Shown: one piece after another, positions 31,001 to 43,000 of the stretch
Layout of the letters: every line of letters starts with the position of its first letter
Position numbering within the stretch: the stretch's first letter is position 1
DNA from: Yuukianura sp. NJ FZ-2021
Lineage: Eukaryota
NCBI GenBank assembly: GCA_046563655.1
Contig: CM102283.1
Coordinates: forward strand, 6,448,001-6,512,000
DNA length: 64,000 bases
Reading direction: 5' to 3'
The notes under the pieces: model-generated
The model's database searches: none
What the model was told of the DNA's origin: nothing
The model's input: the letters and a program-made list of their open reading frames with translations, nothing else
Position numbers and translations under genes: made by a program

Positions 31001-34000
31001 GACGAAAAGTGAAAATTTGAATCAAAAGTCGCGTTCGAAGTGAAAGTTGTTTCAACTTTTACGCAAACTGTGAAAACTCTTGAAAATGTAAAAACGAAAA
31101 GGAAGTAAAAAGTTGCACGAAATTCAAAATTCGTTTACGCCGCACTTACCCATGATGACAGCTACGAACAAGTTCAGCATCTAAGTGGAGGAAAAAATCA
31201 TTTTTTTTTAAAGAAATTTTCACAAAATTTCGAATTGTGAGTTTGGCTTACCAAGAATGAGCAGAAAAAGATGAACGACACAAAGTAGACATAGGCAATG
31301 TTGGATCCGCATTCCTTGTCAATCGGATTTCCATCTTTGTTCTTTAGAGCATCCGGGTCACATTGACTCTTTTCCACACACGACAGCATAATAGATGGCC
31401 ACGACTCTCCAGTCGCACACCTACGTTACCATAAACGTCAAACGTCAACTAAACCAATTTCTGTTTTTGCCACTACTGCGCATGCTCAGACAAAGCATTT
31501 TGTGAGCAATCAAAACGACTAAAGACGAAGCCAACCAATCAGAGTCGAGGAGAAATAGAAAAGCCATGCAGACGATTTAAGGGTGAAAGCAGTTCGTTAG
31601 ATGAGCAAGAGAGGGCACAGGCGCACGGGTAAATTCTGAATAAAAATTTGGCGGTAAAATTTTTTAAAATGGAAAAGATGTAGAAGAGGATGAAAAGACG
31701 ACATTGAAAGAAGTGTTATAAGAAAAGGGATACGGAAACATTTTTTTTATTAGTTGAGCTACTGACCGGAAGAGGAGCATGAGAGCTTGAAGGAAGTTTC
31801 GAAAGTTGTTATGTCGATTGATTGAATATTTAGGATTCAAATCTATGTTACCAAAAACCTGGTAAAAGGCAAAGTTATTAGTTCAAATTTTGAAAAAAAA
31901 AATTAAATGAAGGAATTTTTGAAAATCAGCGCAGTATACCCTCTATTGAGCTTAGCGAGTACTAGAACCCAGCGCCATCTGCCTGTACCTCTCTAAACCA
32001 GCACCTACTAATGTTCTCACAGCATTCCGACTTCAACGCATTTCTACTCAACTTCCTACATTAGCAAGGTTAGTTGCGACAAATCTAAGTCAGTAGGGTG
32101 TTAGTTAATGGTAGGTTCTACGGCATGAGACTACTGGCGACACTTCAACTGGGGACGACGTCTAAAGGGAGGAGCTAAAAGGTCTACCATATTGAGCAAC
32201 TGAGATAAAGTGACTGGCTCCCTAAGGTATACTTGTTAATGGATTAGCCTCCAAGTGTACCTATCTACTCTACGACGCAAGTCATGTTTAAGTGTGTACG
32301 TCACCGAAAGAGGAGGAGGAGTGCCGCAAAGAAGGACTGGAAATTGTTATGTCGGTTGATGCTCTTGTCCGGATCAAATTTCAAGTTTCCAAACACCTAA
32401 ACTTGAGCATAAAGAATGTCAACTGTACAGTAGTCACGCATCATCACGTAACACGCTTACCACGCAACACGCATAATGTAATCTGTCGTCTAATCAATAT
32501 TAGGTGTTCTTTATACTAATACTAAATTGTCGCTAATTGTTTCCCTGAATGCCATCACATCTCGCTCAAAAGTATCTCCCGCGTAAATGTCTCAATTATG
32601 ATAGCTACAACAAATTTGAGATGGTTTTATCGAGACATTTTGTCCTGAGATAGTGTTATCGCGGCATTTCGGCCTGAGATATTGTTATGGAATATTTGAG
32701 GTGGTTTTAGCGAGGCATTTCTGATTTGAGATTTTTTATCGAGACATTTGTGGCTCGAGATATTTTTGAGGAGATAGAATTGGCGTGCTGCTGTATCGTA
32801 TAAACCTTAACTGGAGATAAGGTATCTCAGGTTATCTGAGACGAGATAACTAAATTTTGTGAACCCAAATTAAATTGGTAGTTGTAGCTCACCTGCATGC
32901 CGATAATGGCGTAGATAAAAAATAGCATGGCGATGAGTAGGCAAACGTAGGGTAGGGCCTTGAAGGACTGGACAAACGTCCACAGTAGAATACGTATAGT
33001 ATAACCCTGTCGGAGTAGCTTGATGAGTCGAGCTGCTCGAAAGAGTCTCAGGAACGCCAGGTTCACAAAACTCAGCTGAAAAACAAAGAGTTGGTGAAGT
33101 TTGAAATATAGATGGCGCTAATTTAGAAAAGTTTCAAAATTGTGAACTTGAAAATTCATAAATTCCCAGACTTACATCTAGTTCCACCGCCAGGGCGTCA
33201 ATAATACTTCCAATCACAGTAATAAAATCAAAAATATTCCAGGGATCCTTGAAGAAGTTCTAAATATTGGAATAAAACGTGGTGAGATACACTGGACACT
33301 TTTTTTTGGAATGGTTAGAGATACAAAGGAAGGATGAGCAACAGAACTCAAGAATTAGCACAGTTTTTGTCTTTTGAGCAAAATGGTCGATTCTCACTGA
33401 CTCCGAGTTTAAGAAGACAAGAGAGGACGGGATTATTTTTTAATTTTAGGAAAGTGGGGCAATAAGCAAAAGGAAGTAAAGCAGTAAATTCAAAATTATA
33501 AACTCAAAAATTGTAAACAACATTGAAAAAAGTGAAAATCGTGTGAGAATGAGTATTTTGAAGTTAATTACCCTGACTCCAAAGGCCGTAAACTTTAGGA
33601 CACACTCAATGGTAAAGAGAAATGTAAGAATTAAGTTCACCATCATCAGGACATCTTCGTACTCTGGTGGATTCCGATGGTACTGAGACACAAAATCATA
33701 TAAAACAGAAACAAAAAACAAAGTCTTCGTAAGGCCCAAAATCAACTGAAAATTTTGAATTTCTAAAAAACGGTTTTTCAAATTCTAAAACACGCCTAAA
33801 AACTTTTCTCGGGGCTACTTGAATTCCTTCAATTTAAAACCTAGCATCGCAAATATTCTCATGCCTCTCATTAGAACGTGTGCTTAATAGGTCATTCGAA
33901 AGTTTTCAAGCGTGATGCGTGTCATATGAATGAATAAATGCTTTTTCAACATGCTTTTCCCCTCCCCCTTACGTTTCTTTTTTCAAAAATTAATTTTTTT

Positions 34001-40000: not shown

Positions 40001-43000
40001 TTTCCAAATGGTGAAGTTCACCTTTGAATTTCTTCTTCAGCGGAACTAGAAAATGTCAAGGGTTAAAAACTTTTGTTAGAAAAACTGCTTTCTCTGCTGG
40101 CACTGCTTTGTTTAGAAAAGTAGCGGAAATTGCACTTGACCTGAATGAGAAATTAATGAGTAATTAATCAATTAAGCCTTAACTTACGATCATCAACGTC
40201 ATCCGTTTCCTCCTCCTCTTCCGTATCCGTACTGCGACTTTTGCCGAGAGCTTTCAACTTCTTCCGCTTCGCAGCAGCACGTCTCCGTGCCTCCATAATT
40301 CTCATTTTCTCCTCTTCTGACGTCCTTTCTTCTGCCAAAATCACTTCTTCTGCTTTGCAAATCCACTCGACGTAACCATTGAGCTCACGTTCCAACTGCT
40401 GCTGACGACGCAGCTTCAAAAACGCTTGTCGATTCTCCACTCGCTCCCTTTCTTTTGCAAATTCACTAATTCCAAAAGAAAAAGTGTCGAAAAGTTAGAA
40501 ACAGTAAATTTTGAAGGTTTAGCCGTTTTTGAAGTCGAGAAATTTCATTTTTAGAAAAACTTTGGACCAACCCGGAGAGAACACCAAGAACGAGGTTGAG
40601 CATAAAGAAAGATCCGAGCACTATGAGAGGCACAAAGTAAATCCAGTTGAACATACTCCCCATGGCATCATTGGTCTAAACAAGAACCAATCAGAAAATA
40701 GTTAGAATAGGTTGACCTTTGACGCTGCGTGACCTCTGTTGACCTTACCCAGTAAAGGATGTTGGTCCATCCTTCCATGGTAATACATTGGAAGACAGTG
40801 AGCATGGCAAACCCAATGTTGTCAAAGGACGTAATTCTTTAAGAAAAAATTTCAAGGTCAAATTCAAAATTAGTTTTGCAATCGACTGCACAGCTTTAGC
40901 TGATTCAGTCTGTGTAGATTTTAGAAAATGCAGTTTGCGCAGTTTTAAAAGCGTTTGCGCATGCGTATTACCCCAGGTTGGGACCGATCCATTTGTCCAT
41001 GCACATGGACGTGTTTCCATCGCAGATGTAGGCACCTTCCTTCTGGTCATTTTCGTTGTCCGAGTAACAGGGAGAGGCCGCCTCACCTTCCATCATGATC
41101 TCATCTGCAATTAGTCAATTTCGGTGTCAAAAATTCAAAATTTCACACATCGCGTGACAACTCGCCGTTTTTCAAAAACGTACCAAGATCCTCTAGGCTA
41201 TAACACGTTCGGTGCAAAACTCCGCAGTAGAACTCCAGTCCAATAATGGCAAAGATGACAATGGCAAAGAGTACGAGGAGACCAATTTGCAAGAGCGGAG
41301 CCATCGCCTTGATAATTGACTTCAGAACTACCTGCAGACCTACGTTTCAACATATTCAGTTAAGCCAATGACCTTTGACCTATTGACCTAGCTAACCTCA
41401 CTTGAACAATGCATTCACCAGAAGTTAGGTCTTGTATTGGACCAATTACGGTAAAAGTTTTTGAAAGAGCGTTTACGGTAATTGTTAGCAGCATGCTTCG
41501 AATCGACTCTGCATAAATTGGTGGAGAAAATGGGCGCAAATTTGATTAATTTGGAAGGAAACGGAATTTATAGGCATTAGGCAGGGTGGGAAAACTCAAT
41601 TTGTAAAACTACTGTCAACTGCCGTACTAAATTACTTTCGACTTCTGTTCCTGTCACTACTAATTTTACTAATCTAATTAACTAATTTACTGATTAACTG
41701 CTAAATTACTGAAATCTAATAAACTAGTAAGGATAAAAGTGGATTTACTGGGAATTCCGGAGACGAGTTTGAGAGGTCGAAGTACTCGAATGGCCCGCAA
41801 ATTCCGAAGATCTAACTCTCTACCAGCAATAAGCGTGATGAACCTAGAGTTTGGTCAAAAGTCATTTTAAAAAAAATTTGGCGGCAAAATACGTTTTGGA
41901 AAAAGAAAACCAAAAAAGGAGTCTTGTGCCGCAAAGAAATTGGTTTTTCATTTGATTGAGACCTAGATTACATATCCTTCGCGCTAATTTCCTATTTGAC
42001 GAAAGATCAGAATATTTTGATGATGAATGATGACTATTGTGCTGATCATCGTGATGATGATGAACAAATCATCAGTGCATCATCGATTATGCTTAGAGTT
42101 GTCAGACGTATGGTGTTGTGACTCACTGGGAATTCTGGAGACGAGTTTGAGCGGGCGCAGAACTCGGAAGGAACGCAGAATCCGTAAATCAAAGTCCATT
42201 TTGGCTTCCATGAAAATTGTGAGCGACCTAATCTCGATTGAAATATGTCAAACGGAAGTTAGGACTAAGTGGATGGGCGGAGCCTATTGGCTCTCCTAAG
42301 TACTAACTTCTGTCTAAAAGTGTCTATAATAAGTGTGTCTACTTTTAGTCGCGACTAACACTGTGATTAACCACTGGTCACCATCTATTCTTGTCATCCC
42401 AGTTGACATTAAATATTGACACAAGGCTCATAACTTTCACTTTGACAAAAACCTTTCACCACTTTTAGCCCATTTTTTTCAGGACTTCTATTTCTACTAA
42501 TTAAAAATCATTGAAAGGTTCTTCTTTTCATTCCGACTTATTTTTAAAATTTTTGAACAATTCTTATGAATTTTCAAAACTGGGATAACAAACTATTTTT
42601 CTCAATATACTTTTTTCTAGTAACTTCATTTGTTTTACAGTTTTGCACAAAAACAAAACTAAATTCGCTCACCAAATCTATTGTCTATGGTTGTTGCGCT
42701 AAGTTGTGCGAAATGTAAATGGCTAAAACATAATTTACTATTTTTGCTAAAATTTCAAAATTTTGAACAAAAAAAAAATCAAAATTGACAGACATACCCA
42801 GTAACAACAACAATGAAATCCATCATGTTCCAGATGTTGCGTAGATACGAACCCGGATGCAGAACGAATCCCATGGCGAGTATTTTGACCGAGGCTTCCA
42901 CACAAAAAATTGCTAAAAATATATGTTCAGTCTCGTCCTGTTCAAGAGGTGAAAGGTCGTTAAACTTATTGCACAAAGAGGTCAAATGTCATTCAAAATT

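Follow-up and report, generated by a model that had tools for sequence, protein, structure and literature searches.

Four tandem exon pairs, probably spliced in a mutually exclusive manner, in the Cav2/cacophony calcium channel gene of Yuukianura sp.

The Cav2 gene and its described relatives

Most invertebrates have a single Cav2 gene, which makes splicing the main route to different presynaptic calcium channels. In other subfamilies, vertebrate Cav1.2 has the exclusive exons 8/8a, 21/22 and 31/32, and exons 12a and 12b of invertebrate Cav3 encode the repeat II turret. For the Cav2 gene of Drosophila melanogaster, cacophony (cac), only two mutually exclusive sites, IS4 and I-II, are given by Bell et al. 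(2025, PMC11828482), who report that the choice at IS4 sets the activation voltage and the active-zone localisation (here and below, statements on cited papers refer to the available parts of their texts). A 64,000-nucleotide (nt) stretch of the genome of Yuukianura sp. NJ FZ-2021 (contig CM102283.1, positions 6,448,001 to 6,512,000; hereafter the window, in whose numbering all positions are given) contains a gene of this type with tandemly duplicated exons at four places, IS4, IIIS3, IVS2 and the S5-P turret of repeat IV. Most likely, the spliceosome chooses one copy, and no more than one, from each pair; up to 16 versions of the membrane core could then be made.

A second report on cac (eNeuro 2025, PMC12370356) agrees on both sites and describes exon 6 (IS4B) as less charged. 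Martinez-Gomez et al. (2022, PMC9741552) listed three tandem exon duplication events in D. melanogaster Cacophony and dated the I-II event to the insect–crustacean ancestor; the third event is probably IV S5-P. These events are the same kind of feature as the pairs described here, and neither IIIS3 nor IVS2 is mentioned in the available text. A mutually exclusive pair at IVS2 is known from the Cav2 gene of Aplysia californica, and also from Crassostrea and Octopus (Dunn et al. 2018, PMC5818475, Table 1); these molluscs can be likened to the present case by the site alone. The exon 12a isoform of invertebrate Cav3 is described as highly sodium-selective (PMC4436565, glossary). The Cav1.2 and Cav3 pairs resemble those of Yuukianura in the exclusive swap of single transmembrane segments or of an S5-P turret, but they belong to other subfamilies, affect other segments and stem from independent duplications. 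A full-text search, whose scope excluded most subscription journals, found no paper with an IIIS3 or IV S5-P pair in a Cav2 gene; the available parts of PMC6071210, PMC3923563 and PMC4436565 contain nothing on Cav2 exon pairs, and no functional characterisation of arthropod Cav2 pairs at IIIS3, IVS2 or IV S5-P was found in the literature searched.

The extent of the gene was taken from tblastn matches, with the Orchesella dallaii and Folsomia candida proteins and three other Cav2 proteins as queries:

28059..43400, minus strand: Cav2/cacophony-type voltage-gated calcium channel alpha-1 gene (approximate extent of the protein matches, ends undefined)

Insect and springtail Cav2 queries are collinear with the gene across repeats I–IV and the C-terminus. 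Against PDB, the open frame covering IIS5-S6 matched human Cav2.2 (E = 1.2e-47), Cav2.1 (5e-45) and Cav2.3 (1e-40), and more weakly Cav1.2 (4.6e-34) and Cav3 (about 1e-28), while nearly all named protein database matches were 'type A subunit alpha-1' or cacophony. The minus-strand open frames carry the selectivity-filter glutamates (EEEE) of the four repeats as CITMEGW, ILTGEDW, VQTGEGW and CATGESW, in gene order. The AID motif of the I-II loop ([15 protein letters not shown]), which we take to be the beta-subunit binding helix, lies at 40330–40464 and is identical to the Allacma sequence at 45 of 45 residues. In the conserved core, springtail proteins are the nearest (Orchesella dallaii 75.5%, Folsomia candida about 74%), with insects at 62–71%; by sequence, then, the source is probably a springtail or something closely related, distinct from Orchesella, Folsomia and Allacma. 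By similarity, filter glutamates and AID motif, the gene is identified at the sequence level as a Cav2 (non-L-type, cacophony/CACNA1A-B-E) alpha-1 subunit, as the preliminary description of this stretch had proposed. On the preferred reading it is the only Cav2 gene of this arthropod, and an ancestral exon was duplicated in tandem at four places.

Anatomy of the four exon pairs

The eight alternative exons, in gene order, are as follows:

42127..42227, minus strand: IS3-S4 exon, upstream copy, IS4A-like, six positive S4 charges, ...VSRIP (AG/GT, 101 nt, frame 1)
41749..41843, minus strand: IS3-S4 exon, downstream copy, IS4B-like, five positive charges, ...VSGIP (AG/GT, 95 nt, frame 1)
37709..37821, minus strand: exon of the IIIS2-S3 linker and IIIS3, upstream copy, pancrustacean-derived class (113 nt)
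37370..37473, minus strand: exon of the IIIS2-S3 linker and IIIS3, downstream copy, ancestral class (104 nt)
34753..34863, minus strand: exon of the IVS1-S2 loop and IVS2, upstream copy, main arthropod class, with an N-Q-T sequon (111 nt, phase 0)
33572..33682, minus strand: exon of the IVS1-S2 loop and IVS2, downstream copy, springtail alternative class (111 nt, phase 0)
32305..32396, minus strand: exon of the IV S5-P1 turret and pore helix, upstream copy (92 nt)
31767..31858, minus strand: exon of the IV S5-P1 turret and pore helix, downstream copy (92 nt)

The constitutive exons on either side of each pair were located by a junction search:

42798..42937, minus strand: part of the exon before the IS4 pair (IS2-S3), donor after 42798
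41155..41339, minus strand: exon after the IS4 pair (IS4-S5 linker, IS5)
37959..38024, minus strand: part of the exon before the IIIS3 pair (IIIS2)
37038..37269, minus strand: exon after the IIIS3 pair (IIIS3-S4 loop, IIIS4)
36113..36280, minus strand: part of the exon before the IVS2 pair (III-IV linker, IVS1)
33179..33259, minus strand: exon after the IVS2 pair (IVS3)
32893..33078, minus strand: part of the exon before the IV S5-P pair (IVS4-S5)
31249..31420, minus strand: exon after the IV S5-P pair (filter TGE, P2, IVS6)

The acceptor of the exon after the IIIS3 pair is most likely the one at 37269, which has a proper pyrimidine tract; 37191 is a weaker alternative.

All eight pair exons are bounded by AG (acceptor) and GT (donor) sites, contain no stop in the channel frame and agree with their partner in length modulo 3, and each of them splices in frame to both flanking constitutive exons. 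Within the pairs, amino-acid identity is 58% (IS4), 59% (IIIS3), 43% (IVS2) and 63% (IV S5-P), at a nucleotide identity of 60–69%, and both members of each pair align to the same residues of the insect and springtail Cav2 queries. The cluster criteria of Pillmann et al., quoted in PMC3923563 as similar length, conserved splice pattern, preserved frame and sequence homology, apply to all four pairs. A translated self-comparison of 27500–44000 gave 18 same-strand rows, five of which come from the four pairs (36.8–64.3 bits). The best row of each pair scored 44.1–64.3 bits, against at most 28.6 bits for other near-neighbour rows, and the remaining rows reflect the similarity of repeat I with repeats III and IV. 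These scores place exactly four tandem pairs far above chance, and no fifth pair appeared in the region compared.

The segments encoded by the pairs can be assigned from their context: the repeat III label follows from the S2 motif 'FTIEMILK' before the pair and the S4 sequence '[11 protein letters not shown]' after it, and the repeat IV labels from S1 preceding and S3 following the IVS2 pair, and from S5 preceding and the 'ATGESW' filter following the turret pair. On human Cav2.2, the upstream IIIS3 exon aligns to residues 1202–1236 and the upstream turret exon to residues 1620–1649. The preliminary description had placed the four pairs correctly and had named the right segments for them; its outer limits, 31767 and 42227, are exact exon ends.

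Both members of the pairs have been coding for a long time. Over 131 aligned codons, pair members differ 48, 26 and 78 times at codon positions 1, 2 and 3, respectively (chi-square p = 1.4e-6), a third-position bias of the kind left by long purifying selection on the protein; 39 of the 76 residues conserved between pair members are encoded by different codons. Moreover, each copy is nearer to some foreign sequence than to its own partner. The upstream copy of IV S5-P is 87% identical to Hyalella and the downstream copy 83% to Folsomia, versus 63% within the pair. The downstream copy of IIIS3 is identical to Orchesella at 30 of 33 residues and to Daphnia variant 1 at 30 of 34. At IVS2, the upstream copy matches one Allacma model (P0263) at 28 of 37 residues, its nearest sequence being that of Daphnia (68%), and the downstream copy matches the other two Allacma models at 22 of 37.

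The IS4 copies sort into the two classes known from insects and Daphnia. The upstream copy scores 53–57 bits against the 'LRMLRSF...VSRIP' class ('SMTIFAE...[20 protein letters not shown]'), versus 35–37 bits for the other copy, and the downstream copy scores 42–47 bits against the 'LRTLRAI...VSGIP' class ('...[21 protein letters not shown]'). The pair agrees with that of Drosophila in its position, in having the more charged copy first, in its class-specific residues and in the difference of one charge; the Drosophila exons measure 99 nt each, unlike the 101 and 95 nt found here. On these sequence characters the pair is orthologous to Drosophila IS4A/IS4B.

The I-II pair of Drosophila and Daphnia, in contrast, has no orthologue in this gene. 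The preliminary description counted that pair as part of the cac repertoire, which is right for Drosophila according to the available text of PMC11828482 but does not extend to Yuukianura, whose gene has a single AID exon:

40330..40464, minus strand: part of the single I-II loop (AID) exon, I-IIB-like, matched by I-IIA-type peptides

Four I-IIA-type peptides, searched across the whole window, matched this exon alone (E about 1e-12), all other matches having E of at least 0.29, so that an I-IIA-like partner is absent. The introns flanking the AID exon are about 100 and 600 nt long. The other three pairs of Yuukianura (IIIS3, IVS2 and IV S5-P) are not among the two named for Drosophila in the available parts of PMC11828482 and PMC12370356.

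The intron after the AID exon also holds a candidate 24-nt microexon, LPLKKKFK (40022–40045, minus strand), with a ttttctAG acceptor and a GTGAAC donor, which would add a lysine-rich stretch to the I-II linker. It matches the 'VPLKKKSK' linker cassette of Folsomia, and counterparts that are present or absent among isoforms are VPLKKKSK in Folsomia, VPLKKKSSKG in Allacma and VPKKKGFK in Daphnia pulex.

At three of the sites the reading frame would by itself impose a choice: inclusion of both exons or of neither at IS4, IIIS3 or IV S5-P leads to a frameshift and a stop 8–47 codons after the upstream exon. Exclusivity would therefore be enforced at least by the reading frame for these three pairs, and by membrane topology for IVS2. 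In repeat I, the swap would replace the S4 voltage sensor together with the S3-S4 linker, the copies being one positive charge apart as in Drosophila IS4A/IS4B. In repeat III it would replace S3 with the preceding S2-S3 linker. Repeat IV has two swaps, one replacing S2 with the preceding S1-S2 loop and the other the first pore helix with the outer turret.

The same sites in other arthropods and the age of the pairs

For a survey of isoforms, 103 of 120 matched proteins were arranged into 20 multi-isoform groups (one of which lumps three Bactrocera species) and 14 single proteins; 17 single proteins, mostly of Lepidoptera, were omitted. Isoforms of Daphnia, springtails, chelicerates and additional flies were added through an IIIS3-centred Allacma protein search and cluster look-ups; a protein search with the 41-aa frame of the upstream IIIS3 copy matched 3 proteins among 21 candidates, too small a number for this purpose. 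Two Varroa proteins and several spider pairs, which may be paralogues, were left uncounted, and an apparent IVS2 pair in Solenopsis invicta was dropped, since protein P0204 differs along its full length and represents a paralogous gene. Both variants occurred within one group at IS4 in 5 of the 20 groups, at IVS2 in 8 (moths, Aedes albopictus and two Chironomus), at IV S5-P in 3 and at IIIS3 in none. When the isoforms of one gene are aligned, they show clean exon-sized substitutions at the same sites as in Yuukianura. The numbers of proteins with either variant at each site are:

Folsomia candida, 14 proteins: IS4 11/3; I-II none; IIIS3 13/1; IVS2 2/12; IV S5-P 13/1
Daphnia pulex, 10 proteins: IS4 8/2; I-II 8/2; IIIS3 3/7; IVS2 single; IV S5-P 4/6
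Daphnia magna, 8 proteins (7 RefSeq and one GenBank model): IS4 5/3; IIIS3 3/5; IVS2 single; IV S5-P 4/4
Dermatophagoides farinae (mite), 5 proteins: IIIS3 single; IVS2 3/2; IV S5-P 2/3
Chironomus riparius, 3 proteins: IVS2 1/2; IS4, I-II, IIIS3 and IV S5-P single
Eurosta, 5 proteins: IV S5-P 2/3; IS4, I-II, IIIS3 and IVS2 single
Bactrocera tryoni, 4 proteins: IVS2 single; IV S5-P 1/3
Allacma, 3 partial models: I-II single; IIIS3 single; IVS2 2/1; IS4 and IV S5-P outside the models

The closest counterpart is the Cav2 gene of Folsomia candida (XP_035706290–XP_035706306; isoforms X1–X15, 14 compared), which has the same four alternative sites and, among these 14 isoforms, no I-II substitution. 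At a core identity of about 74%, the two genes are unlike in that the IV S5-P variants of Folsomia differ at just six positions (position 4 and a five-residue stretch), whereas the identity within the Yuukianura pair is 63%, and in that the minor IIIS3 variant of Folsomia is intermediate between both classes. Daphnia pulex and D. magna share with Yuukianura clean substitutions at IS4, IIIS3 and IV S5-P, which in D. pulex are freely combined among isoforms, but they have an I-II pair, and no IVS2 alternative was seen in their 10 and 8 proteins, respectively. Among flies, Drosophila virilis X13, Bactrocera tryoni X3 and Eurosta solidaginis X14 share a letter-identical alternative exon at IV S5-P ([29 protein letters not shown]).

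The suggestion that the IIIS3, IVS2 and IV-turret pairs might be new to Cav2 therefore has to be given up, since these pairs are already annotated in arthropods: all four sites in Folsomia, IIIS3 and IV S5-P in Daphnia, IVS2 and IV S5-P in the mite, IVS2 in moths, mosquitoes and midges, and IV S5-P in flies, while the IVS2 pair has been published for molluscs (PMC5818475, Table 1). Public gene models thus already contain the feature, and those of one springtail contain it in full; the IIIS3 pair was found in no paper searched. The value of the Yuukianura gene is that of one more well-defined example, set in a comparative picture in which pancrustacean Cav2 has five or more sites of exon swapping. 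Together with the Folsomia, Daphnia, mite and fly models, it indicates that the same exon-swap device is also at work in two further voltage sensors, those of repeats III and IV, and in the repeat IV outer pore, and the IIIS3, IVS2 and IV S5-P sites could alter gating, permeation, or sensitivity to toxins and insecticides.

On the IIIS3 tree, a starred clade (96/88) unites the upstream copy with 10 pterygote rows, Hyalella and the second Daphnia variant. The downstream copy groups with springtails and the first Daphnia variant, and also with chelicerates, molluscs, an annelid and a hemichordate. This grouping marks the downstream copy as the ancestral type and the duplication as at least as old as the common ancestor of Daphnia and hexapods; judged from these sequences, the IIIS3 pair looks pancrustacean in age. 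The non-lepidopteran pterygotes sampled have the derived type alone, and Lepidoptera are sister to the derived type. At IVS2, the downstream copy and Allacma form a starred pair (99/92), and two classes recur in Pancrustacea and in a mite both at IVS2 and at IV S5-P. A single pan-arthropod origin of these classes was considered and dropped: the trees are too short, and approximately unbiased (AU) tests merely failed to reject single alternative-class clades (p = 0.318 for IVS2, p = 0.369 for IV S5-P).

A broader reading, for which we see about as much support as room for doubt, is that the Cav2 gene of the pancrustacean ancestor had at least five exclusive sites (IS4, I-II, IIIS3, IVS2 and IV S5-P), followed by differential loss across lineages. 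Springtails would then have kept four of them and lost, or never had, I-II; the Daphnia models show four, and higher flies would have kept three. Pancrustacea would have gained the IIIS3 pair as an innovation of their own; its derived copy would have become the sole IIIS3 exon seen in pterygotes, with springtails and Daphnia still holding the ancestral copy. Should this be true, fly-based work understates the diversification of arthropod presynaptic channels, which would involve three voltage sensors and the outer pore.

Exclusive use of the pairs and other features of the window

Frame logic, codon-position bias and the isoform substitutions in other arthropods all favour the reading of the preliminary description, in which the pairs are mutually exclusive tandem exons, and we consider it likely that all four pairs are used in this way together in Yuukianura. 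We further infer that all eight exons are used, and that the variants would differ in gating, permeation, or the binding of partners or toxins. Several observations weigh against this picture. For other species, the RefSeq isoforms are the product of computed gene models, and in Folsomia the minor variant at IIIS3, like that at IV S5-P, is found in one of 14 isoforms. The IVS2 exons are 111 nt each, and their double inclusion or skipping stays in frame without a stop in the next exon. The IVS2 and IV S5-P trees are short (30–37 columns) and weakly resolved, and in the free IVS2 tree the springtail downstream class lies outside the alternative class of insects and the mite, although a clade of the two is not rejected by the AU test (p = 0.318, as given above). 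The weakest of the eight is the upstream IIIS3 exon: its acceptor tract is purine-rich and its donor reads GTAACA, both of them weak signals, and its terminal branch is 0.4, versus 0.097 for its partner; this exon may be rarely used or under relaxed constraint.

That at least one of the eight exons, most plausibly this upstream IIIS3 copy, is an unspliced relic, leaving fewer than 16 combinations, is the alternative to be taken most seriously, although we think it improbable. Apart from the weak splice signals and from the branch being the longest terminal one in its tree, it draws on the use of the other IIIS3 class by the springtail models (Allacma 3 of 3, Orchesella 1 of 1, Folsomia 13 of 14), and chance open frames of some 35 codons are nothing unusual. 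However, the substitutions in the upstream copy are conservative relative to the consensus of its class, 12 of the 22 residues shared by the IIIS3 pair are encoded by different codons, and there are only 3 second-position differences in 33 codons. The class to which the copy belongs is moreover the major form in Daphnia (7 of 10 isoforms) and the sole form seen in non-lepidopteran pterygotes, and one Folsomia isoform does have an alternative exon at IIIS3. It is less probable still that the pairs are not strictly exclusive, so that both exons or neither would also give a working product. This is conceivable for IVS2 alone, where the reading frame by itself cannot enforce exclusivity, since double inclusion or skipping stays in frame. 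In six-helix channel repeats, though, an extra or missing helix inverts the whole downstream topology, and none of the 14 Folsomia, 5 Dermatophagoides, 3 Chironomus and 3 Allacma models carries both exons or neither. An assembly artefact, with collapsed or expanded haplotypes posing as duplicates, can be dismissed almost entirely: at 60–69% DNA identity the pair members are old duplicates and not assembly copies, their flanking introns differ, and the same pairs are present in independent assemblies of other species.

Exclusive splicing remains the preferred reading, and no dedicated RNA-structure or steric mechanism was found for it at the four clusters. Steric exclusion was rejected as implausible because the introns between partners are too long (283, 235, 1070 and 446 nt for IS4, IIIS3, IVS2 and IV S5-P, respectively). 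Incompatibility with U12-type donors was likewise rejected, as none of the eight donors resembles the U12-type consensus GTATCC. An inverted-repeat scan of the four clusters gave 12, 2, 56 and 5 pairs of at least 12 nt, respectively; a mechanism based on RNA structure was not accepted as evidence, being without comparative support and having a pairing geometry that would loop out both IS4 exons. The segment 42296–42313, upstream of the first IS4 exon, is complementary to 42252–42269 (83% of 18 nt) and also to 41419–41433, downstream of the second IS4 exon (87% of 15 nt), in both cases probably by chance. A short tandem repeat (32600–32750), with a self-match and inverted repeats at 32568–32657, lies in the intron that follows the IVS4-S5 exon and precedes the IV S5-P pair.

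Outside the Cav2 gene, the window contains six uninterrupted open frames of 503–526 aa (amino acids) on the plus strand (243–1820, 2753–4321, 10349–11914, 12835–14382, 16316–17848 and 25075–26583). They are alike at the N-terminus (...SDAT.LA.NR.VCA.WRN.IES...TRL.M...NW) and look like a tandem array of intronless paralogues; the two of the six that were scanned matched no Pfam family. Two more long open frames, 18290–20185 (minus strand, 632 aa) and 20631–22064 (plus strand, 478 aa), are located in the part of the window richest in G+C (0.41–0.47). The sole match of the 478-aa frame, to a zinc knuckle, stays below threshold (18.2 bits where the cut-off is 20.8; E = 0.0026), and the two frames may be the remnant of a retroelement.

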